Positions 26,094 to 60,116 of a DNA stretch of 64,000 nt are shown here, piece after piece (position 1 is the first letter of the stretch; every line of letters starts with the position of its first letter). The stretch is from Candidatus Omnitrophota bacterium (GTDB lineage Bacteria; Omnitrophota; Gorgyraeia; Zapsychrales; Aceulaceae), in NCBI GenBank assembly GCA_029564765.1, contig JAKQPK010000023.1, positions 163,640 to 227,639 of the forward strand. Reading direction: 5' to 3'. The notes under the pieces were generated by a model. The model ran no database searches. It saw only the letters and a list, made by a program, of their open reading frames with translations, and had not been told where the DNA came from. A program made the translations under genes and the position numbers.

Positions 26094-26105
26094 ATTTTCT
26101 CCTCT

Positions 26106-44903: not shown

Positions 44904-46148
44904 CTATAACAAATATTGATATTTCTGAAGAAATTTAGCCCCTACTCTCGAAACTGCTCCATAAGAATAATGTGTCTCATTCATTAACGACTTAAATCGC
45001 TCTTGGAGGCAGTGATCTTCTTCTGAATAATTAACCAAACCGTTTACTTTTTCCAAGGCTTCTATGGCTAAACCCTTGACATCTTCTGAAGAATTCTCAA
45101 CAGCTATGATGCTATGCTCTTTGTATAGGCTATCTGTTCGAAAATTTCCAATAGAAGTAGAAAAGATTTCTTTAAAACTTAGATATCGGTTTTCTTTTAT
45201 TGACCAAATAAGCTTAGGGATTGCAATATCGTCAGGACCATAAGGTAAAATTGCAGAAATTGGCCCACTGATATTTGCAGCCGCAGTTAAGACTCCAAAA
45301 ACGCTAGCCAGATTTGATAAACCCGAGTTGCTCCCTAAAAAAAACTTACAACTTGCGCATAAAAAAACATCCATCCAATCACTTTTAACACTCAAATGTG
45401 CGTAGTCAATAACATTTCTCATTTTTGGAATTGACTTCATCGTTGGATCACCAACCCGGATAACCCACCCACCCCTATCAACAATTTCCTGCATTGCTGA
45501 TAAATAATTATTTATATCAACATTTCGAAGAGTTTCCTTGTTTTTATGCATACCAAAGCCATTTTCTCGACAATGAACACATGCAAACCAGGCGTCGCTA
45601 GGGAGACCTAAATTACGCAACACCTTCCATCCTCGATTACGATCAAAATTAGTCAAAGAGAGGATTGGTGGACGACCATAATATTTTCTCTGGATTTCTG
45701 GAAAAGATGCGTTTTCAAAATGACCGCAAAAATATTTTTCGACCCTATATCTAGTCAGCATACTCCTGCAAAATGGACTTAACAGAATACAAAGAATCGG
45801 ATTTTGTATAATTAATATCCGCTTTCTCCAGTAACCAAGAAAATATTGGTTAACAACATCTTTTTTAAGTGCTAAAAGAACAGCTCTATATTGAGGTCGC
45901 AAGTCAAGAATACCTTCTTTTATATAACAATCTAATTCGCCGGCTAAATGCCCTATCGCCATTGTTGATATTGGAATAAACTTAACTCTCATTAACCAAA
46001 GAAAAGGATAAAAAATAAGTCCTATAACTTGACCGACAACAAAATAAAATAATTTAATTGAGAAATAAAATATCCCCTCAGCCCTCAGAACTCTTATGGC
46101 GTATTCCGAGATTTTTATTATCGTTGACAGGACTTTATTGTATACCAT
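44904..46148 (-). CDS. Hypothetical protein with an N-terminal TM anchor (possibly an uncharacterised glycosyltransferase)
   Basis: 414 aa. One N-terminal TM segment is followed by a large soluble domain. I recognise no catalytic motif confidently. It is assigned only by its context in the glycan locus. Confidence 0.3.
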   Translation of the reverse strand: MVYNKVLSTIIKISEYAIRVLRAEGIFYFSIKLFYFVVGQVIGLIFYPFLWLMRVKFIPISTMAIGHLAGELDCYIKEGILDLRPQYRAVLLALKKDVVNQYFLGYWRKRILIIQNPILCILLSPFCRSMLTRYRVEKYFCGHFENASFPEIQRKYYGRPPILSLTNFDRNRGWKVLRNLGLPSDAWFACVHCRENGFGMHKNKETLRNVDINNYLSAMQEIVDRGGWVIRVGDPTMKSIPKMRNVIDYAHLSVKSDWMDVFLCASCKFFLGSNSGLSNLASVFGVLTAAANISGPISAILPYGPDDIAIPKLIWSIKENRYLSFKEIFSTSIGNFRTDSLYKEHSIIAVENSSEDVKGLAIEALEKVNGLVNYSEEDHCLQERFKSLMNETHYSYGAVSRVGAKFLQKYQYLL

Positions 46149-47499
46149 TTAAATGCCACTCAAGACGACATTGATTCCAAATAAACAAAATTATTGGAAA
46201 TATTATTAAGTTAATCGCCAAATAACCAAGGGCGATGTTAATAATAGAAGAATATTTTCCTAGTAAAAAGGCAGCTCCTCCCACAGCCAACCCGCCAGCA
46301 ATAGACACAAGGAAAATAGGCTCTTTTTTATGAGCTCTCATATACACAGAAAAAGGAAGAGACAACATCGTCGTCACTTGCGCTATTAAAAATATTGTCG
46401 TTGGCAATAGCGGCAATATCCGAGAAGAAAATGGATGGTTAATTTTATTAAGAAAATACACTCCAAGCCATACCGCTAGTGCGCCAGACACTGTTATGGT
46501 AATAAATATTTTTATTATCTTCCAAAACAAAATATCAAGCTCCACATATCTTTTTTCAGCAATCAACATCCCAAACTTTGGAGCTTTTGGAAAAATCCAC
46601 GAGCCAGAAACTGTAGCAACCATGCTTGCTATGCTCCAGGTCATGCCAAACTGACCAGCAACTATTGATCCATGATAACGAAAAATTATTGGTGTAAAGA
46701 TTGAAAAAATAAAATAGCCGCTAATCCAACTAAGCGCTATCCTCCATTGCATTGGAAAAATTTCTTTTCTCCAGTTTATTTGATCGCCAGGAATATTATT
46801 AAAAAAAAGGCTTTTTATAAAATTAAGATATTTAAATCCTAGAAAAAATATTGACCAAAACAACACCATCATAGTCGAAATAGATGCTGTCCAGAGTTTT
46901 GCTCCTAACAAAATTGCTATCCAAATAGATAAACTAGAAATAATTCCTTGAAAAAAACGAAAGAAATATACATCAGCTACTTGATTACATCCTTCAAGCA
47001 AAGACCAGGCAGGAACAAAGAATAGAATGCCCGCAGTAAAAAAACACAAGGAAAACCATGGGCCCACCCAATTTATATCAATGCTACTACTAGAATTCTG
47101 AAAAAAAATGTAACCACCTAGGCCTAGTCCCAAAGCAACAATCAGTGCTCCAACCGCATACCATTTAGAAGTAATATTAGCCAGACTTCTGAGTCGCGAA
47201 AGGGCATTCTTGTCTCCAATGATGCTTCCATCCTCGCTGATCTTTAATTTAGACCACTCATGACTTGCAAACTGTATAACAACAATACCCAGCCCTAATT
47301 CCACAAAAACCTGTAAAGCTAAAAGGCTGGCAAAAGTGTAATAATACCCTTGCAGTTCCGGAGAAAATTTAGAAGCAATAAGTAAAATGGTTACCGGCGC
47401 AAAAATAACGCTCCAAAGCCTTGCCAGTAATCCAAAAAAGACTGCTCTGTCGACTTCAAGTTTGTGCAATATCTTCGTCAAAAGAGCAACAAATGCCAT
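46135..47499 (-). CDS. Polysaccharide flippase-like membrane protein (Wzx / MOP superfamily)
   Basis: 454 aa with about 12-14 TM helices. The N- and C-terminal halves are duplicated-looking, as is typical of Wzx flippases. Confidence 0.5.
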   Translation of the reverse strand: MAFVALLTKILHKLEVDRAVFFGLLARLWSVIFAPVTILLIASKFSPELQGYYYTFASLLALQVFVELGLGIVVIQFASHEWSKLKISEDGSIIGDKNALSRLRSLANITSKWYAVGALIVALGLGLGGYIFFQNSSSSIDINWVGPWFSLCFFTAGILFFVPAWSLLEGCNQVADVYFFRFFQGIISSLSIWIAILLGAKLWTASISTMMVLFWSIFFLGFKYLNFIKSLFFNNIPGDQINWRKEIFPMQWRIALSWISGYFIFSIFTPIIFRYHGSIVAGQFGMTWSIASMVATVSGSWIFPKAPKFGMLIAEKRYVELDILFWKIIKIFITITVSGALAVWLGVYFLNKINHPFSSRILPLLPTTIFLIAQVTTMLSLPFSVYMRAHKKEPIFLVSIAGGLAVGGAAFLLGKYSSIINIALGYLAINLIIFPIILFIWNQCRLEWHLNGIQ

Positions 47500-47501: not shown

Positions 47502-48554
47502 CTATAGATCTCCTGCAATGTTAAGAATAACACGTCCAATGGCTAGATTCTCAAGTCTAGCCAATCCTTTGTCAATATCTGCAAGAGGAAAACTTTGGTC
47601 AATAAGTTTTGTTAGACCAAGCTTTTCTGAAAGAAATAAATCAGCATATAACGGAATGTCTGCGTCCGGTCTTGCCTCTCCTCCCCAGGTGCCGATGATT
47701 CGCTTGCCCCTAATCAGGTCAAATGGATCAATATGTATCGTTTCACCTTTTGGTAAATTTCCGGCAATGACACACAAGCCGCCGTTGTCGCAAACTGACC
47801 TGAACGCCATCTCCATGGATTCCTTTTTACCAGCAGACTCAATTGAATAGTCTACCCCGCGCCCACCCGTAATTTTCATAATGATGTCAAGGACGTCTTC
47901 CTTTTTGATATTCACAGTATGTGTCGCTGCGAGTGATCGCGCGAATGCGAGCTTATCATCAGATACATCGACAGCAATAATTTGGCCAGCTTCTTTCATT
48001 TTGGCAGCCAATAAAGCACTTGAGCCTATGCCGCCAATACCGAAGATCGCGATACTCTTGCCTTGCGCGAGTTTCATCGTATTTATGACGATCCCGGCTC
48101 CCGTTGGAGCGGCACAACCCAAAAGCGCTGCTTCTTTTAAAGGCATTCGCCTATCGATCGCGACAAGCCGGTTTTCAGAAACAACAGCATATTCCATAAA
48201 AGTAGAAATAGCGCCGGAATTGACAATGCTCCCATCTCTTGTTCGGTACTGGGTTGACGGAACATCTATCCCGCTTCCCTTGATCCAAGTCAGCACCACA
48301 TGATCGTCTACTTTAACCTTTTGCACATCCGGCCCCACATCAACAACGACACCGGATCCCTCATGGCCTAAGGTATGCGGCAAGAATTTGTCCTCGCCTT
48401 TTAAACCCTTTATTTCATTAAGTTGAGTATGACAGATCCCACTGTAAGCGATCTTGATCAAAGCCTGGCCTCTTTTTAGTTCAGGAATAAGGAGTTCCGT
48501 GATCTGAAGTGGTTGACCGATCTGCCTTAAAACAGCTGCTTTTGTGGTTTTCAT
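47502..48554 (-). CDS. Zinc-dependent alcohol dehydrogenase (MDR family)
   Basis: GICHTQ provides the catalytic Zn ligands, with GHEGSGVV and the Rossmann motif GIGGIGSS. I place the start at the internal MKTTKAAV (48554), immediately after the NUDIX stop. The longest ORF would start at 48596. Confidence 0.8.
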   Translation of the reverse strand: MKTTKAAVLRQIGQPLQITELLIPELKRGQALIKIAYSGICHTQLNEIKGLKGEDKFLPHTLGHEGSGVVVDVGPDVQKVKVDDHVVLTWIKGSGIDVPSTQYRTRDGSIVNSGAISTFMEYAVVSENRLVAIDRRMPLKEAALLGCAAPTGAGIVINTMKLAQGKSIAIFGIGGIGSSALLAAKMKEAGQIIAVDVSDDKLAFARSLAATHTVNIKKEDVLDIIMKITGGRGVDYSIESAGKKESMEMAFRSVCDNGGLCVIAGNLPKGETIHIDPFDLIRGKRIIGTWGGEARPDADIPLYADLFLSEKLGLTKLIDQSFPLADIDKGLARLENLAIGRVILNIAGDL

Positions 48555-48555
48555 A

Positions 48556-49005
48556 TCAAGACACAACCTCTCTTTGATATCTATCAAGCGTGACATGCAT
48601 TACAGGCGGCATCTTTAATTTCTTAGTTTCAAGATAAGAAAACATCCCTGCGCCCTGGCCTTCCATTACTTTATGGGCATGCCAAACGCTCGTAACATCA
48701 ACGGTAAAAAACCAGCTTCTTATTTTCTGGCCTTCATTTTCATCAATATAGTCAATGAGCCACAAATATTCAAAACGCTCTGGCTGGATCAACAATTCTT
48801 CAGAAAGCTCTCTTTTCATGCTTGCCAGAGGGGTTTCGTGTTCGCCAAGCATCCCGCCAAACAGGGTCCATTGACCCGGAGCAGAAATGCCGGGCTTATT
48901 ATCTCTTAGTTGTAAGACATATTTCTTATTGAACAAAAGAATGGCATGGGATGACTGTAGAAACAACAAGCTTCTCTTTTCTGCGAATTTTCCCTTAATC
49001 AGCAT
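48556..49005 (-). CDS. NUDIX hydrolase
   Basis: The Nudix box reads GGMLGEHETPLASMKRELSEELLI (GX5EX7REUXEEXGU). Confidence 0.7.
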   Translation of the reverse strand: MLIKGKFAEKRSLLFLQSSHAILLFNKKYVLQLRDNKPGISAPGQWTLFGGMLGEHETPLASMKRELSEELLIQPERFEYLWLIDYIDENEGQKIRSWFFTVDVTSVWHAHKVMEGQGAGMFSYLETKKLKMPPVMHVTLDRYQREVVS

Positions 49006-49020
49006 AGCTTTACTTAATTT

Positions 49021-50808
49021 TTACGGCATTTTGATTGATTCTAAGCATGGCTTTATGATCATATTTCTCAGAAACTCTTTTCTATTCAATAAAGGCTCCA
49101 AATCTTCATTCGGCCTGCCATATTTTACCTGAGGAATAACTCTGTGCTCAGAGCTAATATGAACATTGCAAAAAACAGGACCTTTTTTCTTAAAAACCCT
49201 TTGAACGCATTCTTCTAGATCAGAGTTTCTTGACACGTCTAATGTATGGAAACCATAAGATCGAGCTATTTTAGAAAAATTGATTTCTGGCAATCCACCC
49301 TTCACTGAAGAAGCAACATAGCAGGAACCCAGCCACTGATCTTGGGTTTGCCTGATCATGCTGTATCCATCATTGTTTACAAGAAAGATCTTTATCGGTA
49401 GCTGGTGTCTTATGATCGTAGCTAGCTCTTGCAAGTTCATATGCAAACTTCCATCTCCTGTTACGCATATAATCGAAGCTCTATCCTTTGCAAAAGACGC
49501 GCCTATGCTTGCAGGTAGTGCCCAGCCCATCGCAGTGTTATTCCAATCATGGAAAAGACGTTGATCCTTTTTAAATTCAAAACCTTGCATCATCCAAGCT
49601 AAGCAACAGCCAGTATCAACAACAAGGTGATCCCCATTTTTGCACTTACGTGAAAGTGTTTTAACAAAAACATACGGATTTATTTTTTTCTCACCACAAT
49701 ATCTGGATGGACAAATGGGATATGCGGACTTCCATGTTGATATCTGCCTGAACCAGGCTGAAATATTTTTCTTCTTCACCCTTTGAATCTTGGCATTCAA
49801 TTTCTGAAGAAATACTTTTGCATCACAATGTATGAGCACGTCTACATCTAAGTTGAATCTTTTGAACTTACCTAACTCATTTTTATCAATATCAACGATT
49901 ATTTTCTTTGCCCCACGCGCAAATGTGCTGATCGGGCTTCCCGTTGCTTTTGTGTCTAATCTAGACCCTATAGATAAAATAAGATCGGCATTCTGAACAG
50001 CAAAATTCGCATAACGAGTGCCGTGAGTGCCAAAGGTGCCAATAGAACATGCATGGCGTGAAGGCAAAATATCAGCTACGGCCCATGTAGGAGCAAAAGG
50101 TAATTTTTGCTTATTAATAAATCTTTTTGCTTCTCTAATAGCCCCGGCCAAACGCACGCCTCCGCCCAAGATCACAACTGGCCGATCGGCGCAACTAAGC
50201 ATCTTTATACAAGAATCAATTTGCTTATCAATCAAAGCAGGAATATTCTTTTTACAAGGAGCAACAAAACCCTTGAGTTTCTTTGGGTCAACAGCAGCTC
50301 TCTGTAAATTATCAGGAATATCAACAAGCACTGGACCGGGCCTACCGTCTTTTGCCAAATAACACGCTTTTTCTAATTCATAGCGGATATCTTTTTCATT
50401 ACGGATCTGAACAGAATAATTTGTCACATGCCTAAACATCGCAATGACATCTGTCTCTTGAAAACCGATCTGCCGAACCCCCGTATCTTTTTTTTGCCTA
50501 AAGGTGGCGACTTGACCAGTAATATACAAGACTGGGATCGAATCATAGTACGCCGAACAAATGCCTGTCAGAAGATTTGTGGCACCTGGCCCACTCGTGG
50601 CGATGGCTGCTCCTAAATTGCCTGTTACTCGCGCATAGGCGTCAGCAGCCATAGCCCCTGCCTGCTCATGTTGCGGGCAAACATACTCTATCCCTTGAGT
50701 CTTTGCGATGGAATCTATAAGGTGTGCTGCAGCTCCCCCTGTTACAGCAAAAACATGCCGTATCCCTTGTTCTGCTAAAAATTTCGCTACATAATCTGAA
50801 AGCTTCAT
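49021..50808 (-). CDS. Thiamine-diphosphate-dependent enzyme of the acetolactate-synthase / YerE-like family
   Basis: The N-terminal Pyr domain reads VFAVTGGAAAHLIDSI...GPGATNLLTGI. A central domain follows, and the C-terminal PP domain carries GDGSLHMNLQELATI. I place the start at MKLSDY (50808), which abuts the upstream methyltransferase stop. Confidence 0.85.
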   Translation of the reverse strand: MKLSDYVAKFLAEQGIRHVFAVTGGAAAHLIDSIAKTQGIEYVCPQHEQAGAMAADAYARVTGNLGAAIATSGPGATNLLTGICSAYYDSIPVLYITGQVATFRQKKDTGVRQIGFQETDVIAMFRHVTNYSVQIRNEKDIRYELEKACYLAKDGRPGPVLVDIPDNLQRAAVDPKKLKGFVAPCKKNIPALIDKQIDSCIKMLSCADRPVVILGGGVRLAGAIREAKRFINKQKLPFAPTWAVADILPSRHACSIGTFGTHGTRYANFAVQNADLILSIGSRLDTKATGSPISTFARGAKKIIVDIDKNELGKFKRFNLDVDVLIHCDAKVFLQKLNAKIQRVKKKNISAWFRQISTWKSAYPICPSRYCGEKKINPYVFVKTLSRKCKNGDHLVVDTGCCLAWMMQGFEFKKDQRLFHDWNNTAMGWALPASIGASFAKDRASIICVTGDGSLHMNLQELATIIRHQLPIKIFLVNNDGYSMIRQTQDQWLGSCYVASSVKGGLPEINFSKIARSYGFHTLDVSRNSDLEECVQRVFKKKGPVFCNVHISSEHRVIPQVKYGRPNEDLEPLLNRKEFLRNMIIKPCLESIKMP

Positions 50809-51506
50809 ATCTTCTTCCTTAAGGAAGGAAGCAGTCCTGAGCCTATTGCCCAAATATAATGACACATTGGCGCGTATCCAGTGTGGAGGACTTCGTCGTT
50901 CATCCCAAACATAAATACATTTTCAAAATATTTTTCCATCAGATCACGCAAACTTTTACTACTTTTAAGATTAATGTGCTGTACTCTGCTTCTTGAGGTG
51001 GCATGCGCAGAAGCAGTAATGTTGGGAGTCCCAATTATCAAAACTCCTCCAGGTTTAAGGCATTTAATAATATTGTCCAAAAATATTTTCTCTTTTTTCG
51101 GCTCTAAATGCTCAATAACATCAATGAGGAATATTCCGTCCACTACCACTCCAGGAGAGTCCTTATTTAAATCCACATACAAATATTCAACGTTCTTAAG
51201 ATGCGCAAGTCTTTTGGCATTGCCTTGAAGAAGTCTCTCATCCCAATCGCAAGCATACACTTTCTTTGCAGCCTGGGCCATGATGGGGAGGCCGAACCCG
51301 TCACCGGATCCAACTTCCATAACGCTCCTCTTCCCTTCAAGCATTTTCGCGCAGAATTTATATCTAGCTAAAACGAAACACATATGCTTAGGGTCATTGA
51401 CCAAACTGTACGATGTCCATGGCCCCATTTTCAATTCTGGAGTATTAAATTGATATTCTGTACCTTCACGATAGGCTTTTCTTGCACATTTATTAGAAGT
51501 ACGCAA
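50805..51506 (-). CDS. Class I SAM-dependent methyltransferase
   Basis: SAM motif I is VMEVGSGDGFGLPIM, motif II is KVYACDWDE, and the post-I region is VLIIGTPN. Confidence 0.7.
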   Translation of the reverse strand: MRTSNKCARKAYREGTEYQFNTPELKMGPWTSYSLVNDPKHMCFVLARYKFCAKMLEGKRSVMEVGSGDGFGLPIMAQAAKKVYACDWDERLLQGNAKRLAHLKNVEYLYVDLNKDSPGVVVDGIFLIDVIEHLEPKKEKIFLDNIIKCLKPGGVLIIGTPNITASAHATSRSRVQHINLKSSKSLRDLMEKYFENVFMFGMNDEVLHTGYAPMCHYIWAIGSGLLPSLRKKI

Positions 51507-51525
51507 TTTTATCTCCTTTAAATTA

Positions 51526-52353
51526 TTAAATATTCTTATAACGTCTTAGCTTAAATTTATTTTTATCTTTGTATAGCTGTTCCTTGAACTTCATGCCTTT
51601 TTCGCGCCAAGGATCATGGACAACGGAAAAATTCCTCCCACCGACCACATCACGCCCCTGAGCCATGCACCAATTAATACAATCATAAATATCTTCATAA
51701 CTCGTGCCCGATTTCTTCGATCTTAAAAATTCAATGGTCTTGTTATAGCTTCGCCCTGAAGCAGCCCTATGTTCTAGCGTCTGATCGTGAATTTTAGTCC
51801 TAACCCATCCAGGGCCTAAGATAAAAACATTGAGATCAGGATTCTCGTCGTCAAGAAGTTCACACGCCTTTATCAACATAATTTTAGAGGCACAGTAAGC
51901 GGAATAATTAGTAAATGGGTTGTTTGTTCCACCTCCTGCAAAGAAAACAACATGGCAGGGCTTCCTTTGGCGCCTGTAGGGATAAATTTCATGTAAAAAA
52001 CGAAGCTGTGCGACAGAGTTTACGTTTACAGATCTTTCCCACTGATCAAAATTACAACCAAAAAATCTACCTATAGGCTCCATGGATCCCACGCAAGAAA
52101 TAAAAATATCCCACGGTTGGCTTAACTCTTTATATCTATTCACACATTTTCTTATATCGGCTTTATTTCCAACATCACATTTTAAAAGATGAACACCTCG
52201 AGCATCTAAAAGAGATCTCACGCTAGCCGTGTTTCTGTATGCACCCACAACATTATATCCCTGCTTGCAATAACGTTCGGCCAACGCTTTTCCAATATCA
52301 CTACCTATACCAAGGACAAAAACATTCTTTTCTCTTGATCTTTTACTAGGCAT
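51526..52353 (-). CDS. Short-chain dehydrogenase/reductase (SDR)
   Basis: VFVLGIGSDIGKALAERY is the TGxxxGxG-type Rossmann motif, and YCASK is the YxxxK pair. Confidence 0.7.
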   Translation of the reverse strand: MPSKRSREKNVFVLGIGSDIGKALAERYCKQGYNVVGAYRNTASVRSLLDARGVHLLKCDVGNKADIRKCVNRYKELSQPWDIFISCVGSMEPIGRFFGCNFDQWERSVNVNSVAQLRFLHEIYPYRRQRKPCHVVFFAGGGTNNPFTNYSAYCASKIMLIKACELLDDENPDLNVFILGPGWVRTKIHDQTLEHRAASGRSYNKTIEFLRSKKSGTSYEDIYDCINWCMAQGRDVVGGRNFSVVHDPWREKGMKFKEQLYKDKNKFKLRRYKNI

Positions 52354-52356
52354 ATT

Positions 52357-53841
52357 TTATGCTTCCTGAGACTGCATTATGTTTTTGACCCTGCTATTAA
52401 CACCTAAATTTCTTCTAGTATTTATGCGCCAATCTTCTAATTCTTTCAAAGTTATACCATTCATTTTCGCAATCTTTTCTTTTCTTTCATCCGAAGAAAA
52501 ATTTATCCTATCCCACTCAAAAGATCTCAGAACTTCTAACTCAAAAGGAGTAAACTCGTTAGTTGAAATAAGTCCTTTTCCATAACCAGAATATTTGGAA
52601 ATATTTTTTATATAATCATCAGGTAAAAATTTATTGCTCAAACAAATATCCATTAATTCTGTTTTTGGAAGAGGCGTCGCTATATGAAAATTTACTATAT
52701 CAACACTGAGCTTCTCTGCGTACCTAAACGTATCTCTTATCTGATCCCATGTTTCTCCAGGAAAACCAATAATAAAGTTCGCAATTATTTCAAAGCCAAT
52801 GGATTTAGCAAGATCGAGTTTTGCAGGAATCTTGTCTAATCTAATCGGCTTTTTCACTATTTTCGTAAGAACGTCCTGGTTTCCGGATTCAATGGAAACG
52901 GTTATATGCGTACATCCACTTTTATACATAAGTCTTAATATTTCTTCATCGAGCAACCATGCAGTAACATTAACGCATTTCCATGTGAGACCTTTATGGC
53001 CTTTTAAGATTCCTTTCATTATTTCCATGGCTCTTTTTTTGTCTGCCAAAAAATGATCGTCGAGGAATATGACTTCTCGAATGCCTTGATTATACAAAAT
53101 ATCAATTTCTTTAAGCACGTTTTCTGCGCTTCTAAACCTTACTTGTTTTCCGCTTACCGTCCTGCCTGCACAAAAAATACACCTATAAGGACAGCCTCTT
53201 GAAGTAATAGTAACTGCCGAAGGATAATTTCTTGCTAACAAGCCAGGAGCGTATTTGAATTTAATATTTCCATAGTCTTGCAAAGTAGCTCCAACGACAG
53301 AGGAGTAATCAGGAAAAGGTATTTCGTCAAGATCATCTATGAATTCTATTTTATTTACGACTGGTGTCTCGCCTTGCCAGTAAGCCAATCCGCTAATACC
53401 AAGGAGGTCCTTAGTCCCTTTGCTTAGCCTATTAACAAGAAGAGGGAAAGAGCGCTCTGCTTCCCCCGCAACCCAGTAATCAACGTTCCTATCTTTCATT
53501 GCTTCTTCAAGCATAACTGTAGGAATAACACCTCCTAAGACAATTACTGCACTGGGCAGATATTTTCGAACAAGAGCTATCGCGTGCTGGGTAACATTAA
53601 AATATTCTGTCGAGATAGAGCTAATCCCCACTAAATCAGGATTTATTTCTTTGAGAAGAGCCGACATTTTCCTCTCGGAAAGATTTCGAAAATTAGGATC
53701 GAGAACAACAGTTTCTGCCTGCTCTTTAATTATTGCGCTCAAAAGACATAGAGTGTATGGTGGAAATTGCCATGTTCTTTTTGAAAGCCAGGCATAATTA
53801 GGCTGAGTTAAAAGTATCTTCTTTATTTTTCTCAACTGCAT
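52357..53841 (-). CDS. Cobalamin-binding radical SAM enzyme (class B radical SAM; likely a C-methyltransferase)
   Basis: An N-terminal B12-binding domain is followed by the radical SAM cluster motif CPYRCIFC (CxxxCxxC). I place the start at the internal M (MQLRKIKK, 53841), which abuts the E1beta stop. Confidence 0.85.
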   Translation of the reverse strand: MQLRKIKKILLTQPNYAWLSKRTWQFPPYTLCLLSAIIKEQAETVVLDPNFRNLSERKMSALLKEINPDLVGISSISTEYFNVTQHAIALVRKYLPSAVIVLGGVIPTVMLEEAMKDRNVDYWVAGEAERSFPLLVNRLSKGTKDLLGISGLAYWQGETPVVNKIEFIDDLDEIPFPDYSSVVGATLQDYGNIKFKYAPGLLARNYPSAVTITSRGCPYRCIFCAGRTVSGKQVRFRSAENVLKEIDILYNQGIREVIFLDDHFLADKKRAMEIMKGILKGHKGLTWKCVNVTAWLLDEEILRLMYKSGCTHITVSIESGNQDVLTKIVKKPIRLDKIPAKLDLAKSIGFEIIANFIIGFPGETWDQIRDTFRYAEKLSVDIVNFHIATPLPKTELMDICLSNKFLPDDYIKNISKYSGYGKGLISTNEFTPFELEVLRSFEWDRINFSSDERKEKIAKMNGITLKELEDWRINTRRNLGVNSRVKNIMQSQEA

Positions 53842-53842
53842 T

Positions 53843-54904
53843 TTAAAACGGCCCCTTAAACCAATCTCCCGGAACATCGTGAGGGCAGGCAGATTTGTTA
53901 TTCAAATCCTCAAATGGAATATCTTTGCGAAGCATCTGCCCGATAGCCTTCACGATATCTTCTGCTCCTTTATAAAAAACCTTTGTTAAGGTCGGGCTTG
54001 TGGGAGTCGGGACATCGGCAAGCGCTATGCGTCGCGGAGCACCCTTAAGAGAGCTAAACAACTCCATGCTGACCCGCGCTACGATCTCACTTGCAACAGA
54101 ACATGTTTCGTTGCCTGTATCAAGAACGAGTAGGCGTCCGGTCTTTTTGACCGATGAAAAGATCGTTTTCCAGTCTAAAGGGCACAGTGTTCGCAGATCA
54201 ACGACATCGCACTCCACGCCATTCTTGCTTAACACCTTAACGGCTTGCAGAGCTTCTATGGTCATATATGATGAGGCCACGATCGTAGCCGCGTCCCCAT
54301 GCCTTAAGACCTTGGCCTGGCCTAAGGCCACACGAAAATCACCTGCCGGGACATGGCCCTCAACATTGTGCAGCCAACGCTGTTCTAAAAAAATAACAGG
54401 ATTTGGATCAAAAATGCTGGACAGCAAAAGACCTTTGGCATCTGAAGCCGTCGCCGGAGCGACAACTTTAAGCCCAGGAATATGCGCAAACCAAGCCTGG
54501 AGATTTTGTGAATGTGTCGGCCCCTGCCCCCAGCCGCGCCCTAAGATCAATCGGATCGTAATTGGAACAGAATGTTTTCCTCCAAACATATAGTGCCACT
54601 TTGCCGCGTTGTTCACAAGCTGATCCATTGCCAAGAGAAAAAAATCCAGCCGTTGGTGTGTCATAACAGGACGAATGCCGTTTAAAGCAGCCCCGATCGC
54701 GATACCGGTCATAGAATTCTCAGAGGTTGGCATATCAAAGACGCGTTCAGGCCCAAAATTTTCCCTCAAACCCAGCGTTGTCCCAAAAACACCCTTAGGA
54801 TCATCTGTTCCAAGGCCATAACAGATCACATTCTTATCTTTTTGCATAGCAACATGCAATGCCTCGTTGACCGCGCGAAAGAATTTTAGATTACGCTTCT
54901 GCAT
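53843..54904 (-). CDS. TPP-dependent dehydrogenase E1 component, beta subunit (transketolase-like Pyr and C-terminal domains)
   Basis: 353 aa. The sequence ICYGLGTDDP...FDMPTSENSMTGIAIGAALNGIRPV is typical of the PDH/acetoin-DH E1beta family. Confidence 0.85.
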   Translation of the reverse strand: MQKRNLKFFRAVNEALHVAMQKDKNVICYGLGTDDPKGVFGTTLGLRENFGPERVFDMPTSENSMTGIAIGAALNGIRPVMTHQRLDFFLLAMDQLVNNAAKWHYMFGGKHSVPITIRLILGRGWGQGPTHSQNLQAWFAHIPGLKVVAPATASDAKGLLLSSIFDPNPVIFLEQRWLHNVEGHVPAGDFRVALGQAKVLRHGDAATIVASSYMTIEALQAVKVLSKNGVECDVVDLRTLCPLDWKTIFSSVKKTGRLLVLDTGNETCSVASEIVARVSMELFSSLKGAPRRIALADVPTPTSPTLTKVFYKGAEDIVKAIGQMLRKDIPFEDLNNKSACPHDVPGDWFKGPF

Positions 54905-54916
54905 ACTGCCTCTTAA

Positions 54917-55888
54917 TTAAGCAAAAACATCCTTTGTTAATTCGCTTGCATCTGGAAAAGGTGACTTTTCAGCAAAATCAAAAGCCTTCGCGACCTGCCG
55001 GCTAATATCCCGCTCCACCCGCTCGATGTCTGCTTTTGATAGATCCTTTCGGCGTAAAAGTTTCTGCTCAAGCCGCAAAACAGGATCACGCTTCTTCCAC
55101 TCTAGATATTCCTGGTTCGTACGATACCCCAGATCGTTATCAAAAAGCGGGCCGCAGTGCTCTCTCCAGCGATAGGTCGAGAACTCGAAGAAGTATGGCC
55201 CTTTTCCTTGGCGGATACGGCGCAACGCGCGAGAAACCTTTTGGTAGATGCTTTCCGCGTCATTGCCGTCACCTTGTTCAGCAGGGCAACCGATCGCTTT
55301 CGCTAATGTATAGATCGCCCTTTTAGAAGGTTGGCGAACCTTGAGTGGAGAATAGACAGAGTATAAATTATTTTCACAAATAAAAAGAACCGGTAGTTTC
55401 TTGAGAACAGCAAAATTGACCGATTCATAGAACATACCTTCTTCGCTGGCGCCATCGCCAAAGAAAGCGCATGATACTTGATCCGTGCCGTGCAGGCGAA
55501 TGGACAGCCCTAATCCCACACCAACAGGGATCGTGCCGCCAACGATCGCGGTGCTTCCCATGAACCCAACACTCTTATCGACAAGGTGCATCGATCCACC
55601 CTTACCCAAAGAACAGCCCGTCGCCTTGCCATAAATTTCTGCCATCATCGCGTTCAAATTTCCGCCCTTGCCAAGATAGTGGCCATGCGAACGATGTGTG
55701 CTTACGACAAAGTCGTCCTGTCGCAAGGCTAAGCCGACCGCGGCGGAGATCGCCTCTTGTCCGGTGCACAAATGTGTTGGACAGCGCATTTTGCTCTCAG
55801 AATACCGCACGGCAATGGTTTCTTCAACCATGCGGATGAACTTCATGCGCTTCCATACATTTAACAAGATCTTATTCTTTTTATTCAT
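54917..55888 (-). CDS. TPP-dependent dehydrogenase E1 component, alpha subunit
   Basis: The TPP-binding region reads GDGASEEGMFYESVNFA, and the E1alpha core HRSHGHYLGKGG is present. I place the start at the internal MNKKNK (55888). The longest ORF would start at 55954 and overlap the methyltransferase gene. Confidence 0.8.
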   Translation of the reverse strand: MNKKNKILLNVWKRMKFIRMVEETIAVRYSESKMRCPTHLCTGQEAISAAVGLALRQDDFVVSTHRSHGHYLGKGGNLNAMMAEIYGKATGCSLGKGGSMHLVDKSVGFMGSTAIVGGTIPVGVGLGLSIRLHGTDQVSCAFFGDGASEEGMFYESVNFAVLKKLPVLFICENNLYSVYSPLKVRQPSKRAIYTLAKAIGCPAEQGDGNDAESIYQKVSRALRRIRQGKGPYFFEFSTYRWREHCGPLFDNDLGYRTNQEYLEWKKRDPVLRLEQKLLRRKDLSKADIERVERDISRQVAKAFDFAEKSPFPDASELTKDVFA

Positions 55889-55893
55889 CGCTT

Positions 55894-56556
55894 TTAAGGA
55901 ATGAACCAGTAATGATCGCCGGTGTATCCAACCTCGACAAAAAACTTTTTCCAATCATCCACATGCATCATGGTCTTGGCCGTCAAATTCCATGCTTCCA
56001 TGGCCACGCGTTCTTCATCATTGCGATAAGCGTCAACAGTGATAAAGCTTCTACCGCGGCTAACGCGCTCGATCTCTTGCAAGGCTTGGGCACACTCATC
56101 GCGCTCAAGATTGTGGATCGTATTGATCGAGATCACAACATCATAGGACTTGTCTTTGAAAGGTAGGCTTTTCGCGTCGGCCACCATGACAAATGGCTTC
56201 ATATCCTCAATGGCATGGACGATCGCGTACTCTGAGATATCAATGCCTTTTACGGTGATACCGGGAATAGCTTCGTTAAGGTCGTGTAACATAAAACCCT
56301 TGCCACAGCCCACATCTAAAACAGAACTGTTTTGTGTTAATCCAAAATGCTCTTTAAATGTCGGGATCACCGGCTGCCAAAAACGAGGATTGTAGTTGAA
56401 GCCTCCGTAACCATGGCGACGGTCCCCATCAAAGAATTCTTTACCGAATTGGCGGGCAATGGCGCGATCCTCGGCGGTTTTTGAGGCGCCCCGATCCTTC
56501 ACGTCACGCTTTGTCTTTGGATAATTTACCAGAAGGTCAATTTCTTGCCCCATCAC
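55894..56556 (-). CDS. Class I SAM-dependent methyltransferase
   Basis: SAM motif I reads VLDVGCGKGFMLHDL. Confidence 0.7.
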   Translation of the reverse strand: MMGQEIDLLVNYPKTKRDVKDRGASKTAEDRAIARQFGKEFFDGDRRHGYGGFNYNPRFWQPVIPTFKEHFGLTQNSSVLDVGCGKGFMLHDLNEAIPGITVKGIDISEYAIVHAIEDMKPFVMVADAKSLPFKDKSYDVVISINTIHNLERDECAQALQEIERVSRGRSFITVDAYRNDEERVAMEAWNLTAKTMMHVDDWKKFFVEVGYTGDHYWFIP

Positions 56557-57515
56557 AAACCTTTCGTGTCGGTTTTGCCGCCGTAGATCTTTTTCATCGT
56601 GCGGATGTTATAACAGTTGTCTTCATCTTTAAAATGACCACCGCGATAGGCCGCGACAAGCTCTTTGATCGCGTCTTCTACACCATATTGCGGCTTGAAA
56701 CCCGTCGCCAGTAGCTTATCGGAATTCAAACGATACGAACGCGGGTCATTGGACTCTGTGACGACAATTTCCGCAGGGACGTGGCGCGCGACCATATTCG
56801 CGATATCAAGGATAGAAATATTCTCAAAGCCCGCGTTGAAGATCCCCTGCGCCTTGCTGCCCAGCTTAAGAAAGTGCAAATAAACCCCGATCATGTCTTT
56901 CATATGAATATTGGGACGTGTCTGATCGCCGCCGAACACCGTCATTCTCTTCTTCGTCAAGGCTTGAGATGTCATCATATTCACAGACACATCCAGGCGC
57001 ATGCGAGGCGAATACCCACAGACAGTTGCCGGACGAACACACTGCAGGATAATAGCACGCTGATAGCTCAAGAAAACTCGCTCGCTAATCATCTTGGTCT
57101 TGTTGTAGTCCGAAATAGGAACAAGCTCTAAGTCTTCGGTAACCTGCGGCTCTTCTTTAACACCATAAACGCTTCCAGAGCTCGCGTAGATAAATTGTCT
57201 TATCTTGTGCTTGATGGCACTTTCGATCAACAGCATCGATGCCAAGGCATTGACTTCCCACGCTAGTTTAGAGTCCAGTTCACCGCAAGGATCGTTGGCC
57301 ACATTGGCTAAATGAAAAATAACATCCACATCCTGCATCGGGACCTTGGCAATGTCTCGAATATCACCCTGAACAACTTTCAAATTCTTGTGTTCAGCCA
57401 ATACATTGCCAAACCACATGATGTCGTAAACAGTGACCCTGTGCCCTTCCTGTAAAAGGGCTTGTGTTAAAACACTGCCGATATATCCACATCCGCCTAA
57501 AACAAGTATATTCAT
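56553..57515 (-). CDS. NAD-dependent epimerase/dehydratase (extended SDR)
   Basis: ILVLGGCGYIGS is the Rossmann motif. The YNKTK segment gives the YxxxK pair. A C-terminal region typical of NDP-sugar epimerases follows. Confidence 0.8.
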   Translation of the reverse strand: MNILVLGGCGYIGSVLTQALLQEGHRVTVYDIMWFGNVLAEHKNLKVVQGDIRDIAKVPMQDVDVIFHLANVANDPCGELDSKLAWEVNALASMLLIESAIKHKIRQFIYASSGSVYGVKEEPQVTEDLELVPISDYNKTKMISERVFLSYQRAIILQCVRPATVCGYSPRMRLDVSVNMMTSQALTKKRMTVFGGDQTRPNIHMKDMIGVYLHFLKLGSKAQGIFNAGFENISILDIANMVARHVPAEIVVTESNDPRSYRLNSDKLLATGFKPQYGVEDAIKELVAAYRGGHFKDEDNCYNIRTMKKIYGGKTDTKGL

Positions 57516-57532
57516 AATTTATTCCTTGCGAA

Positions 57533-59074
57533 TTAAAAGCCAAGCAGCGTCATGCCGCCCTTTAAAAACTTATCTTTCTTAATTGAATCAGCGTTTCCGA
57601 TAATACGAACAGCCTGGGCTCCAGCCAACTGTCCCATAAATGTCGAAATATCGATCGGTAAACCCTTAATCGCAGCCAAAGAAGCCACAGAGCAAAAGGC
57701 ATCGCCTGCGCCAACAGTATCAACCACAGATTGCTCAAAAGGCATGCAAAGGCATTCGCCTTCGGAAGTCTTTAGACCGATAGTATCTGTTGCGCCCCGA
57801 GTAAGCCAGGCGTAGCGCGCGGACAACTTGCTCTTTAACTTCTTTAACTCTTCAGAAAGATTAATATTCTTGCGACCACACGCCAAAGTAAGCTCTGACT
57901 CGTCTAGTGAGAATGAATCAGCCCGATGATATTGTCTATCGATGATATTAAACCCGTGATTATAGCTGTTTGTCTGGCAATTCAATGCTAGAAAGCGCGC
58001 CTTGGATTGAACAAGTTCGCGAATCTTATGTTGCATTAACCCGTGGCCGAAATCCATAACAACAACTAGATCGTAATCTTTAATGCATTTCTCGATCAAG
58101 TCATAAACCAGATCATGGGTCCTTTGGCTTAACATTTGCTCTTCGATCACATTGATAGAAAATAACTTCGTAAGTTCTTTGCCGTCAGAGAGCGGCTCGA
58201 CAAAACGCTGCTTGATGATCGTGGTAAAATCAGGACTGCGGATAATCCCGTCTTCATCGGGGCTAATATATTTTGCAAGCTCTTCATCTACCCAAGGTTC
58301 GTCGCCCACCAAGCTAATGAGCTTGATATTTGATGTAAACTGCTGAATGTGCCGAAAAACCGCTAAAGCCCCTCCAGCCTGCGTTTGTTCAGACAAAAAC
58401 CTTGTGGAAATAATGCGGTTCTTTGAGGTGAGCCCCTGAACCTTCACCGACGAATATCGATCAAAAATGATGTCTCCAACAACAAGGACTTTAAGGTCTT
58501 TAAAACCATCAACGATCTCTCGAAATTGATCTGGCGTATATTTTTCGGCAAGCTTCTTGCAGAACTCCTTCATCTGCGGCGGATGAACATCAAAATGGTT
58601 GTTGAGCAATTTTGTTGAGCTAAAAACAACAGACCCCACGTAACGCACTTGGCCGCCTAACTTTTCTACAGTACGAATATCATCATAAATATTGCCCGTA
58701 ACATCCACGTTAGGATTTTCATACTCCTTGCCTTTGCAATAAATGTCCGGCCCAACACATTCAATGGCCTCGCACGCGGCGGGAAAAGGAACCACAACGA
58801 CATAATCAACATACTCAAGCGAGCACAAATACTTGACCCTTAATTCATCATTAAAATATGGCCGGCCGGGGCCTTTGTTAACATATTTTTCTGCTGTGAT
58901 CGTCAACACCAGAATATCTCCTAAGGCCTTGGCTTCTTCAAAATGGATAATGTGGCCGGGATGCAAAAGATCAAAGGTACCATGGCACTGAACAATCCTT
59001 TTTCCCTTGCTTCTTAGCTTTGCAAAAAAATCTTTTGCGCCTTCGAAAGAAACATGTTTTTTAGAAACAAACAT
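57533..59074 (-). CDS. Bifunctional sugar-1-phosphate nucleotidyltransferase / sugar kinase of the HldE type, with the domain order reversed (transferase N-terminal, kinase C-terminal)
   Basis: Residues ~20-150 read GKRIVQCHGTFDLLHPGHIIHFEEAK, which is the cytidylyltransferase-like HxGH motif as in HldE domain II. Residues ~190-513 form a ribokinase/PfkB-family kinase (KVLVVGDIIFDRY...DTVGAGDAF), as in HldE domain I. Confidence 0.7.
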   Translation of the reverse strand: MFVSKKHVSFEGAKDFFAKLRSKGKRIVQCHGTFDLLHPGHIIHFEEAKALGDILVLTITAEKYVNKGPGRPYFNDELRVKYLCSLEYVDYVVVVPFPAACEAIECVGPDIYCKGKEYENPNVDVTGNIYDDIRTVEKLGGQVRYVGSVVFSSTKLLNNHFDVHPPQMKEFCKKLAEKYTPDQFREIVDGFKDLKVLVVGDIIFDRYSSVKVQGLTSKNRIISTRFLSEQTQAGGALAVFRHIQQFTSNIKLISLVGDEPWVDEELAKYISPDEDGIIRSPDFTTIIKQRFVEPLSDGKELTKLFSINVIEEQMLSQRTHDLVYDLIEKCIKDYDLVVVMDFGHGLMQHKIRELVQSKARFLALNCQTNSYNHGFNIIDRQYHRADSFSLDESELTLACGRKNINLSEELKKLKSKLSARYAWLTRGATDTIGLKTSEGECLCMPFEQSVVDTVGAGDAFCSVASLAAIKGLPIDISTFMGQLAGAQAVRIIGNADSIKKDKFLKGGMTLLGF

Positions 59075-59113
59075 TTTTACTCCTTTTAAAAATTTCTGCC
59101 CGTAAACATTTCG

Positions 59114-60109
59114 CTATGGCTTGTGGATATAGTCCATTGGCTGTTTCTTAAGCTCATCGATGTTGTCCTGAGCCCACTGAACGGTCTCGCGAATACCTTC
59201 CTCCAGCTTAATGTGATCCTTCCAGCCCAGCTCCCCACGCAACTTACTACTATCTAATAGATAAGCGGCGTCTTTGCCAGGGCGGTCGTCAACGACCTCA
59301 ACGGCCTCAGAAAGATCTTTGTTCATCATGTCGCAGATCAGCCTTACTGCATCCTTGATCGCGATGTGTCTATCTGTGGCGATATGATATGTCTGGCCAT
59401 TCTGCCCTTGGCGCATGATCTTCAATGTTGCTTCTGAGACATCACGAATATGAATAAATGAACGAACCGAATGGCCTCCCCCATGCAACTGCAGCTTTCT
59501 GCCAAGCATCAAAAAAAGGATCGTCCTTGGAATAATGCGGTATAGCTGTTGTCCAGGGCCATACACATTAGCCGCGCGTGTAAAGACAACCGGGAACTGA
59601 TATTGCCTGAATAAGACCCTCAAATGAAAATCACCCGCGGCCCTTGAAACCGCATAAGGTGTGCTTGGATTAAAAAAGTGATCCTCGGTCACGTCTCCTG
59701 CGCAGCTGCCATACACTTCCGGTGTTGAAACATGAACGTATCTTTTTAGAAAACGAAAATGCCTTATTCTCTCACAAAACATTGCGATCCCCAAAATGTT
59801 GGTTCGGTACCAATGCTCCGGATGCTCCCAGCTTTGAGCGACCATCGACTGTGAAGCAAAATTGACAAGATAGTCCGGCTGGAACTTCTCGATCGTATCC
59901 GCCATCCGATCAAGGTCATGATTGATATCACCACGATCAAATCGAAAAGTGCTGGACTTTCTCATATTCCACTTGTATGGCAGAAAAACATCAGCCGGCT
60001 CGTCGGATCGACTTATACCAAGAACATCTAATCCCTCGTCAAGGCACTGAGCAGCAAAGCTTGCTCCAGAAAAAGAATTACTTCCTAAAATAACTATCTT
60101 TTCAGCCAT
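59114..60109 (-). CDS. NDP-sugar 4,6-dehydratase-like extended SDR, with an atypical cofactor motif and catalytic site
   Basis: 331 aa. The Rossmann motif reads ILGSNSFSGASF (GxxSxxG rather than GxxGxxG). The catalytic segment STPYAVSRAAGD aligns with RmlB PYSASKASSD, so the usual Lys is Arg. That codon reads AGG at 59642-59644. Confidence 0.6.
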   Translation of the reverse strand: MAEKIVILGSNSFSGASFAAQCLDEGLDVLGISRSDEPADVFLPYKWNMRKSSTFRFDRGDINHDLDRMADTIEKFQPDYLVNFASQSMVAQSWEHPEHWYRTNILGIAMFCERIRHFRFLKRYVHVSTPEVYGSCAGDVTEDHFFNPSTPYAVSRAAGDFHLRVLFRQYQFPVVFTRAANVYGPGQQLYRIIPRTILFLMLGRKLQLHGGGHSVRSFIHIRDVSEATLKIMRQGQNGQTYHIATDRHIAIKDAVRLICDMMNKDLSEAVEVVDDRPGKDAAYLLDSSKLRGELGWKDHIKLEEGIRETVQWAQDNIDELKKQPMDYIHKP

Positions 60110-60116
60110 TTTTCAC

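Follow-up and report, generated by a model that had tools for sequence, protein, structure and literature searches.

A 64,000-nucleotide stretch of a Candidatus Omnitrophota genome (assembly GCA_029564765.1, contig JAKQPK010000023.1, positions 163,640 to 227,639; in the following, the window) carries a minus-strand group of 13 genes, at positions 47,502-60,695, in which two different thiamine diphosphate (ThDP)-dependent systems, an acetolactate synthase (ALS)-like carboligase and an E1α/E1β pair, are combined with genes for the activation and tailoring of a sugar. On balance, we think that this group forms a self-contained cassette, spread by horizontal transfer, whose product is one extensively modified nucleotide-activated sugar destined for the Wzx/Wzy polysaccharide locus around it. 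From the observed gene content, conservation and sub-structure of the cassette we infer a pathway, of which we hold the general function, branched-sugar tailoring by two ThDP systems, with high confidence and the specific chemistry with modest confidence.

Gene content was called from Pfam and NCBIfam profile scans of the window proteins; all equivalog cutoffs quoted below are those of NCBIfam. An earlier note on this DNA had placed branched-sugar tailoring by two ThDP systems in the interval 47,502-57,515. The kind of function it proposed has stood, while the boundaries of the unit, the likely acceptor and the number of methyltransferases had to be revised. Indeed, Pfam domains bear out the ALS-like ThDP enzyme, NUDIX hydrolase and Zn-dependent alcohol dehydrogenase (Zn-ADH) side by side, the separate E1α/E1β pair, a short-chain dehydrogenase/reductase (SDR), an extended SDR resembling nucleoside diphosphate (NDP)-sugar epimerases, and a class B radical S-adenosylmethionine (SAM) enzyme (PF02310, E = 7e-15; PF04055, E = 1e-27). 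The interval was too short at its upper end, where the conserved unit goes on with three further genes, encoding a SIS-domain isomerase, an RmlB-like SDR and a 513-aa kinase/nucleotidyltransferase. Moreover, instead of three methyltransferases it holds only two (233 and 219 aa); two more, one of them a TylC3-type C-methyltransferase (60734-61960; the other at 42561-43448), are encoded in the window but beyond this interval.

The grouping of these genes is far beyond chance. About 15 independent loci from different phyla (designated by L numbers) carry the same gene set, mostly in the same local order and with 40-65% protein identity. Occurrence was counted by tblastn of the window proteins against 15 non-redundant loci of at least 13 kb with a ThDP enzyme at least 50% identical to that of the window; weak matches were added from Pfam lists, and absences are partly due to contig ends. 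A classical SDR (SDR275) and a class I methyltransferase (MT219) were each found in 14 of the 15 loci, E1α, E1β and the kinase/nucleotidyltransferase in 13 each, and the epimerase-like extended SDR, which resembles PDB entry 6VO6 (6VO6-like SDR), in 12. Zn-ADH and the RmlB-like SDR are present in 8 loci each, the SIS isomerase in 5, the NUDIX hydrolase in about 5, and the B12-binding radical SAM enzyme, counted at 30% identity or more, in 2. Carriers include a deltaproteobacterial metagenome-assembled genome (MAG; L002-L005), Gemmata (LR593886, L086), a Chlamydiae MAG (L087), Candidatus Nomurabacteria (L088/L089), Omnitrophota and many metagenome contigs, and a Pacearchaeota genome (L006) has a more distant, partial set. 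For the ThDP enzyme itself, well over 200 cluster representatives were found at 60% identity or more to two queries; a plasmid search with this enzyme returned only ilvB-type matches, with no more than 34% identity.

The cassette falls into two modules. Module A comprises the SIS isomerase, the extended SDRs, the kinase/nucleotidyltransferase and E1α/E1β. Module B has the composition SDR275-(variable methyltransferase)-ThDP enzyme-MT219-(NUDIX)-Zn-ADH; we delimit it in this way because in two proteins (P0058 and P0094) the ThDP enzyme carries an MT219-like domain fused at its C-terminus, and because SDR275, wherever present (14 of 15 loci), is encoded beside the ThDP enzyme, directly upstream and with at most one methyltransferase between the two. 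Module A occurs without module B on plasmid NZ_CP054615.1 of Azospirillum oryzae KACC 14407 (L133; locus 13902-26257), in the order SDR, SDR, kinase/nucleotidyltransferase (34% identity), SIS isomerase (48%), 6VO6-like SDR (43%), E1α (50%) and E1β (46%). There, two DegT aminotransferases take the place of module B, followed by a radical SAM enzyme, a NUDIX hydrolase (32%) and glycosyltransferases. In addition, a kinase/nucleotidyltransferase of the same kind (a reversed HldE; see below) and a SIS isomerase are found on Solidesulfovibrio carbinolicus pDCAR1 (L132) with split transketolases and four radical SAM genes, beside pseudaminic acid genes and with no ALS-like enzyme.

The 595-aa ThDP enzyme of the window, which is identical to public protein P0001, had been likened to YerE on the basis of its architecture, and the comparison with solved structures upholds this likeness. 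In a PDB search its best solved relative is JanthE (8RPH; 361 bits, 36% identity), ahead of all acetohydroxyacid synthases (AHAS), of which the plant and Escherichia coli enzymes score about 300 bits (302 at most); PpYerE (5AHK) reaches 290 bits only, below AHAS, which is a caveat on the YerE-like grouping. With ordinary ilvB genes from a profile scan of genome contigs as outgroup, a neighbor-joining tree places the cassette ThDP clade with JanthE, apart from ilvB-type ALS. The cassette family shows the motifs RLDTKATG, QQTQDQWL and CPQHEQ, where the ilvB-type counterparts are RFDDRxTG, RQWQxLF and RHEQ; RFDDRxTG is present in all 11 ilvB-type sequences compared and the QW pair in 10 of the 11. 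The tryptophan of the AHAS QW pair is a specificity residue, and it is replaced by threonine in both the cassette family and JanthE. JanthE, a YerE-like enzyme, joins 2-oxo acids to ketones; its physiological substrate is unknown (PMC12188165, PMC12247030). YerE-like and E1-type ThDP enzymes both put acyl branches on NDP-keto-sugars (PMC12247030, PMC9306805). By analogy, the cassette enzyme would add the acyl anion of a 2-oxo acid onto an NDP-keto-sugar.

The names attached to these proteins would also suit a housekeeping role, in which a branched-chain ALS and a pyruvate or acetoin dehydrogenase happen to be embedded in a glycan locus: the top NCBIfam names are ALS, pyruvate dehydrogenase E1α and pyruvate dehydrogenase E1β, and public annotations read 'acetolactate synthase'. 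However, all scores lie below the equivalog cutoffs. The ThDP enzyme obtained 435 bits with the biosynthetic ALS model TIGR00118 (cutoff 538) and stayed far under the cutoffs of the other ALS models, E1α obtained 310 bits with TIGR03182 (cutoff 394), E1β 298 bits with NF006667 (cutoff 321), and the ilvB motifs are replaced. The earlier note had named an E2/E3 partner in the operon and an ALS small subunit nearby as signs of housekeeping metabolism. Neither E2 or E3 (lipoyl, 2-oxoacid_dh and Pyr_redox domains) nor ilvN/ilvH or other ilv genes were found across the 64-kb window, and none is listed in the partner loci inspected, which for the E2/E3 domains include the Azospirillum locus. Furthermore, the genes always travel with sugar-nucleotide genes, the E1α/E1β pair being linked to the kinase/nucleotidyltransferase and the 6VO6-like SDR throughout the cassette loci. 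A housekeeping role is effectively refuted by these observations, and the reading of the genes as sugar tailoring, already favored in the note, holds. E1β additionally carries a C-terminal extension of about 25-30 aa ending in (H/L)DVPxxxF(K/T)GPF (window 53843-53930), which recurs in Azospirillum L133 and in every clade I orthologue, these coming from several phyla.

Three lines of evidence bear on the sugar that module A would activate. First, the SIS isomerase, with orthologues in L002, L088, L092, L101, L114 and L133 (27-48% identity), has gmhA as its best NCBIfam match (97 bits, cutoff 209), and the 513-aa protein, in which CTP_transf_like spans residues 31-121 and PfkB residues 385-497, matches rfaE_dom_II with 88 bits (cutoff 181) and rfaE_dom_I with 100 bits (cutoff 345). 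Its domain order, transferase then kinase, is the reverse of that in canonical HldE. This reversed-HldE family is large: 5383 of the candidates scored reach E ≤ 1e-40, among them proteins from cultured Azospirillum and Paramagnetospirillum species; in Nomurabacteria, kinase and transferase are split genes (rfaE domain I, 116 bits; rfaE domain II, 120 bits). Second, a small phosphatase of the haloacid dehalogenase (HAD) superfamily lies inside the cassettes of Gemmata L086 and soil locus L113, and GmhB is the best equivalog match of both (150 and 118 bits, respectively; cutoff 178). A KdsC-like phosphatase stands at the corresponding step in L088, so that the loci vary among NUDIX, GmhB-like and KdsC-like hydrolases. 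Third, the 6VO6-like SDR, which has kept the YxxxK motif, scores 133 bits with 6VO6/6VO8 versus 82 bits or less with every other PDB chain. We take 6VO6 to be Campylobacter jejuni Cj1427, going by the name of the deposited molecule. Cj1427 is a GDP-D-glycero-D-manno-heptose C4-dehydrogenase (PMC10680097). From its sequence, the 6VO6-like SDR is thus a probable NDP-heptose C4-dehydrogenase. The GmhA and HldE best family matches, the GmhB-like phosphatases and the 6VO6-like SDR therefore point to an isomerase-kinase-phosphatase-nucleotidyltransferase route to an NDP-heptose-type sugar, which would then be converted to a keto-sugar.

The second extended SDR of module A is less readily placed. The best PDB matches of the RmlB-like SDR are dTDP-glucose 4,6-dehydratases (155 bits), and its orthologues keep GSNSFSG for GGxGFIG and S(T/S)PEVYG for STDEVYG; in the window, L101 and L002 only, YxxxR also stands for YxxxK. 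These motif changes make its reaction uncertain, and it may not be a conventional 4,6-dehydratase.

ALS-like, AcoAB-like E1, BudC-like SDR and Zn-ADH proteins are, on the other hand, the enzyme types of acetoin/butanediol chemistry. It is therefore conceivable that the ThDP enzymes, SDR and ADH make a small non-sugar unit from pyruvate (an acyloin, diol or branched hydroxy-acid), which would be attached as a substituent or, once phosphorylated, be CDP-activated by the kinase/nucleotidyltransferase for a phosphodiester, teichoic-acid-like linkage. The best PDB matches of the nucleotidyltransferase domain, ethanolamine-phosphate and glycerol-3-phosphate cytidylyltransferases, and a TagF-like Glyphos_transf gene near the Nomurabacteria cassette are in line with such a unit. 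Yet it would leave no role for the GmhA-like isomerase, the GmhB-like phosphatases and the two NDP-sugar-type extended SDRs. Moreover, the 513-aa protein matches no family better than the two HldE domains, and the 6VO6-like SDR is encoded directly upstream of E1α/E1β in several loci (L101, L114 and L133). We consider a small non-sugar unit to be quite improbable, and return to an NDP-heptose-type sugar as the scaffold.

The cassette sits in the middle of a second set of nucleotide-sugar genes (42561-44892 and 60734-63731), including a true glucose-1-phosphate cytidylyltransferase and a CDP-glucose 4,6-dehydratase-like gene at 61957-63731. These two genes favor an explanation close to that of the earlier note, which had suggested a CDP-4-keto-6-deoxyhexose as substrate for an assay of the enzyme: a YerE orthologue would add a two-carbon branch to the CDP-4-keto-6-deoxyhexose made by the neighboring genes, as for yersiniose, and the E1 pair would branch a second sugar independently. 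A cytidylyltransferase also adjoins the cassette in L101 and L002-L004, and more distant ThDP relatives in L011 and L012 adjoin CDP-glucose genes. However, most cassette loci (L086, L087, L088, L092 and L105-L127) have no glucose-1-phosphate cytidylyltransferase within 10 kb, and for this reason the YerE-like enzyme probably does not act on a CDP-hexose. An E1/E3-type 3-deoxygenation pair (ddhC/ddhD) was found neither in the window nor in the cassette loci inspected. In addition, the flanking CDP genes already complete a separate pathway with the TylC3-like C-methyltransferase, RmlC, a reductase and a methyltransferase; by analogy, they would suffice for a separate CDP-6-deoxy-3-C-methyl(-O-methyl)hexose of the vinelose/virenose type. 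A CDP-hexose acceptor thus appears unlikely. With a GmhA/HldE-like activation module of its own, the cassette probably supplies the acceptor itself, as an NDP-heptose-type sugar, and does not draw on the flanking CDP-hexose. A heptose route to a caryophyllose-type C12 sugar, as in Rhodopseudomonas palustris and M. marinum, was considered and rejected: the route published for such sugars, which has been partly tested, relies on a CDP-deoxyhexose together with an aldolase and a YerE-like enzyme (PMC9306805) and involves neither E1 nor heptose genes.

The remaining cassette genes would modify the branched sugar. MT219 (47-60% identity among the loci) appears to be the conserved methyltransferase of the cassette, whereas the 233-aa methyltransferase seems to be an accessory, replaced elsewhere by FkbM-type methyltransferases, which lie beside the ThDP enzyme upstream in L086 and L087 and downstream in L113. 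The public record calls the 233-aa protein as 179 aa; we prefer the longer form because the 54 N-terminal residues that it adds are also conserved in L090, L101 and L127. The best PDB matches of Zn-ADH are class III alcohol dehydrogenases (168 bits), and its clade I orthologues show 45-67% identity; in Gemmata L086, two paralogues of the TIGR04372-type glycosyltransferase GT414 flank the Zn-ADH gene. On reading the window sequence, the NUDIX box is largely intact. NUDIX homologues occur in L006, L106, L113, L117, L119, L120 and L133 and, by Pfam, in L002, which marks this hydrolase as a likely variable or accessory member of the cassette.

For the radical SAM enzyme, the earlier note had envisaged a sugar C-methylase, and an assignment to a characterized methylase subfamily was not obtained. 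Its best NCBIfam matches are HpnJ (166 bits, cutoff 578) and the Sden_1168 P-methyltransferase (164 bits, cutoff 575), with BchE as another weak match; the best PDB match is the dehydratase AprD4 (87 bits), and TsrM and TokK score about 33-35 bits. As the best matches are far below the cutoffs, methylation is only one among several possible chemistries. Orthologues are confined to L101 (81%), L006 (37%) and L114 (30%), as would be expected of a lineage-specific accessory. A 506-aa start for this open reading frame was dropped, the 494-aa form being the called one.

In the pathway that we propose, the GmhA-like SIS protein would isomerize a ketose phosphate, most likely sedoheptulose-7-phosphate, and the reversed HldE-like enzyme would phosphorylate C1 and then link the nucleotide. 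The intervening bisphosphate phosphatase would be the GmhB-like enzyme in other versions of the cassette; here, this step may be taken by an enzyme encoded beyond the window or proceed via the NUDIX hydrolase. The 6VO6-like SDR, the atypical RmlB-like SDR or both would oxidize the NDP-sugar to a keto-sugar, and E1α/E1β, acting independently of E2 as α-KADH2-type enzymes do, would move a pyruvate-derived acyl anion onto that carbonyl. In module B, the YerE/JanthE-like enzyme would then form a second ThDP-dependent C-C bond on another carbonyl, followed by ketoreductions by SDR275 and Zn-ADH, O-methylation by MT219 and the 233-aa methyltransferase and, in this lineage, a radical reaction by the B12-binding enzyme. 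The genes just downstream encode the TIGR04372-family glycosyltransferase and the Wzx flippase that would probably take over the finished sugar.

Several points weigh against this scheme. The 64-kb window lacks a GmhB-like phosphatase, and the activity of the RmlB-like SDR is uncertain in view of its TDE-to-TPE change, altered glycine motif and YxxxR. None of the activation proteins reaches its equivalog cutoff, so that the activated sugar may be one other than D-glycero-D-manno-heptose. With a cytidylyltransferase adjacent in three loci (the window, L101 and L002), a CDP-hexose is a possible acceptor for one of the ThDP enzymes. The carbonyls attacked, the keto-acid donors and the order of the steps were all inferred.

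The cassette is a widespread variation on known ThDP-dependent sugar-branching pathways for which no prior description was found in the literature that could be searched. Within that literature, we found neither an account of this gene combination nor a paper in which both ThDP classes share a pathway or act on a scaffold of the heptose type. The YerE-like carboligases (YpYerE, PpYerE, ErwE, MMAR_2332 and JanthE) share the three-domain decarboxylase-superfamily fold of the cassette ThDP enzyme. Like YerE systems, the cassette has no regulatory subunit, has an adjacent reductase gene (SDR275, compare YerF) and lies in a glycan locus, which in the window holds Wzx, Wzy and glycosyltransferase genes. 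The cassette enzymes nevertheless form a clade of their own, with 50-65% identity among themselves and 36% to JanthE, and have GDG where JanthE has CDG. Unlike YerE systems, the cassette lacks ddhC/D and an aldolase gene that would serve a long-chain donor, and always comes with E1α/E1β and the heptose-type activation module; the yersiniose, erwiniose and caryophyllose clusters carry ddhA-D, whereas the cassette is without 3-dehydrase genes and has the cytidylyltransferase adjacent in three loci only.

The E1 pair finds its counterpart in the α-KADH2 E1 enzymes of aldgamycin, kibdelomycin (KbDH), avilamycin (AviB1/B2) and paulomycin biosynthesis, which transfer a pyruvate-derived acetyl group to C3 or C4 keto-sugars, the branch then being reduced, methylated or transaminated (PMC12247030). 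Both kinds of E1 are heterodimeric, lack E2/E3 and are part of a sugar gene set, a likeness in gene setting; the two DegT aminotransferases beside E1 in Azospirillum fit the pattern of a transaminated branch. The cassette E1 differs in its conserved E1β tail (...DVPxxxFxGPF), in being coupled to a second ThDP enzyme and in its setting, surface polysaccharide of Gram-negative, Candidate Phyla Radiation (CPR) and DPANN lineages instead of actinomycete antibiotics. For module A, the capsular heptose route of C. jejuni (GmhA2/HddA/HddC, Cj1427 and DdahA) likewise builds a nucleotide-heptose, which then undergoes C4 oxidation or 4,6-dehydration and tailoring (PMC10680097). That route, however, uses a separate GHMP-type kinase and NTP_transferase, is GDP-linked, and only epimerizes, reduces or deoxygenates the sugar. 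With the ADP-heptose pathway, the cassette shares the GmhA/HldE best family matches, but the scores are below equivalog level and the domain order is reversed.

A close counterpart of module A may be found in the O-antigen ('virenose') region of Coxiella burnetii, CBU_0673-CBU_0693, which this pathogen requires for virulence. The published annotations (PMC5843353, PMC5423948, PMC3539893, PMC8170629, PMC5554327) list a histidinol-phosphatase-like HAD protein (CBU_0673), a phosphoheptose isomerase (0674), two NAD-dependent epimerase/dehydratases (0676 and 0677), an NADH-dependent dehydrogenase (0679), a UDP-glucose 6-dehydrogenase (0680), an SDR (0681), a methyltransferase (0682), an FkbM methyltransferase (0683), a hypothetical protein of more than 940 aa (0685), E1 subunits (0686, 0692 and 0693) and a TylC3-like C-methyltransferase (0691). 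CBU_0678 is an HldE homologue with an 'unconventional, reversed domain arrangement' that is essential for phase I lipopolysaccharide, its function being stated as unknown (PMC5843353); later reviews still call its role unclear. By published annotation and architecture only, the region matches the cassette gene for gene, and GAGD Asp458 and GPGRP Pro72 of the window protein hold nearly the same positions as D455 and P74 of CBU_0678 (PMC5843353). A run of genes in soil locus L113 resembles the Coxiella order: kinase/nucleotidyltransferase, GFO-type dehydrogenase, NDP-sugar dehydrogenase and GmhB-like phosphatase, then, further on, FkbM methyltransferase, a 926-aa protein, NUDIX and E1β. This 926-aa protein (L113 12733-15513), which has no Pfam match and follows the FkbM gene, is like CBU_0685, which holds the equivalent spot before E1β CBU_0686, in size and position. 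In contrast to the cassette, the Coxiella region has no reported YerE-like ThDP enzyme and would thus equal module A only, and the host is a gammaproteobacterial pathogen, not a member of the Omnitrophota. Coxiella was not among the best 120 matches of a homologue search with the Azospirillum reversed HldE.

A fuller version of the proposal can be offered tentatively, as a possibility more apt to fail than to hold. The product would be a sugar of a kind so far undescribed, with a longer carbon chain or two C-branches (about C9-C12), on an NDP-heptose scaffold, formed by two successive ThDP-dependent C-C bonds (one each from E1α/E1β and the YerE-like enzyme), with the B12-binding radical SAM enzyme adding a C-methylation or ring-forming step in this lineage. 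Such a sugar would be a widespread surface-glycan component of uncultivated phyla from the Omnitrophota, CPR, DPANN and Planctomycetes-Verrucomicrobia-Chlamydiae lineages, and module A would be the chemistry behind the requirement for CBU_0678 and E1 in the phase I O-antigen of Coxiella.

The cassette and its surroundings are listed in Table 1. The minus-strand genes from 63731 to 35288 are separated by gaps of -16 to +63 nt, consistent with a single operon; a lone gap of 181 nt is a product of the 179-aa methyltransferase call and shrinks to 19 nt with the 233-aa start. This part of the window, about 63.7-35.3 kb, is a polysaccharide locus with nucleotide-sugar genes, glycosyltransferases, a Wzx-like flippase, an AsnB-like amidotransferase and a PglC/WbaP-type initiating transferase; a Polysacc_synt_2 dehydratase gene follows lower down, as do two Wzy_C genes. 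Housekeeping genes make up the remainder of the window (PGK, TIM, SecG, an Opp-type ABC transporter, SMC, ETF and acyl-CoA dehydrogenase, and type IV pilus/type II secretion genes).

Table 1. Cassette genes, candidate transfer and export genes, and flanking CDP-sugar genes in the window
Feature	Positions	Strand	Basis
Zn-dependent medium-chain alcohol dehydrogenase (Zn-ADH), 350 aa	47502-48554	-	Pfam ADH_N + ADH_zinc_N
NUDIX hydrolase, 149 aa	48556-49005	-	Pfam NUDIX
YerE/JanthE-like ThDP carboligase, 595 aa	49021-50808	-	TPP_enzyme N, M and C domains
Class I methyltransferase, 233 aa, TTG start	50805-51506	-	Pfam Methyltransf_23/12/11
Classical SDR (SDR275)	51526-52353	-	Pfam adh_short
Class B (B12-binding) radical SAM enzyme, 494 aa	52357-53841	-	Pfam B12-binding + Radical_SAM
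ThDP-dependent E1β, 353 aa	53843-54904	-	Pfam Transket_pyr + Transketolase_C
ThDP-dependent E1α, 323 aa	54917-55888	-	Pfam E1_dh, 213 bits
Class I SAM methyltransferase (MT219), 219 aa	55894-56553	-	Pfam Methyltransf_11/25
Extended SDR ('epimerase'; 6VO6-like SDR), 320 aa	56553-57515	-	Best PDB match 6VO6/6VO8
Nucleotidyltransferase (N-terminal)/PfkB kinase (C-terminal), HldE-like, reversed order, 513 aa	57533-59074	-	CTP_transf_like + PfkB
RmlB-like extended SDR, atypical motifs, 331 aa	59114-60109	-	PDB dTDP-glucose 4,6-dehydratases
SIS-domain ketose-phosphate isomerase, GmhA-like, 192 aa	60117-60695	-	Pfam SIS_2
TIGR04372-family glycosyltransferase, candidate transfer gene	44904-46148	-	TIGR04372, 209 bits, above cutoff 45
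Wzx-like flippase, 11 transmembrane-like segments, candidate export gene	46135-47499	-	NCBIfam WZX_like
Glucose-1-phosphate cytidylyltransferase	62961-63731	-	415 bits, cutoff 300
CDP-glucose 4,6-dehydratase-like SDR	61957-62976	-	
TylC3-type C-methyltransferase	60734-61960	-	
RmlC-type 3,5-epimerase	44362-44892	-	Above cutoff
Reductase-type SDR	43445-44365	-	
Methyltransferase	42561-43448	-	

The base composition of the operon is a mosaic, with a GC content of 0.485-0.49 across E1β, E1α, MT219 and the 6VO6-like SDR (54000-57000) and of 0.34-0.40 across the radical SAM, Wzx and glycosyltransferase genes (0.34-0.37 within 45000-47000 and 52000-53000), which suggests that the operon was put together from parts with separate histories. 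A nuclease-like gene with DUF1016_N and SNase domains (34119-35201) breaks into the glycan locus, with the initiating transferase on one side and Polysacc_synt_2 on the other, and the Chlamydiae cassette L087 has two DUF1016_N/YhcG_C genes (1960-2994 and 12089-13144); the DUF1016_N genes in glycan loci may be mobile or defense-related passengers. The AsnB-type glutamine amidotransferase adjoins a 456-aa protein with 11 transmembrane-like segments and no Pfam match (36969-38927 and 38931-40301). This protein is probably polymerase-like or O-antigen-ligase-like, and the amidotransferase suggests amidation of a uronic acid or similar group. Two tandem, overlapping Wzy_C (O-antigen ligase/polymerase-like) genes (29322-31923) adjoin a glycosyltransferase family 2 gene, just before PGK-TIM-SecG.

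ThDP-dependent sugar branching is known from just a few O-antigens (YerE type) and antibiotics (E1 type), and the cassette enzymes are candidates for biocatalytic tertiary-alcohol synthesis. The cassette also offers a testable hypothesis for a puzzle of the Q-fever agent, namely why the O-antigen locus of Coxiella needs, or holds, a domain-swapped second HldE (CBU_0678) and 'pyruvate dehydrogenase' genes. Abundant in metagenomes, the cassette crosses phylum and domain boundaries, and its product may therefore be a common, chemically unseen component of environmental cell surfaces.

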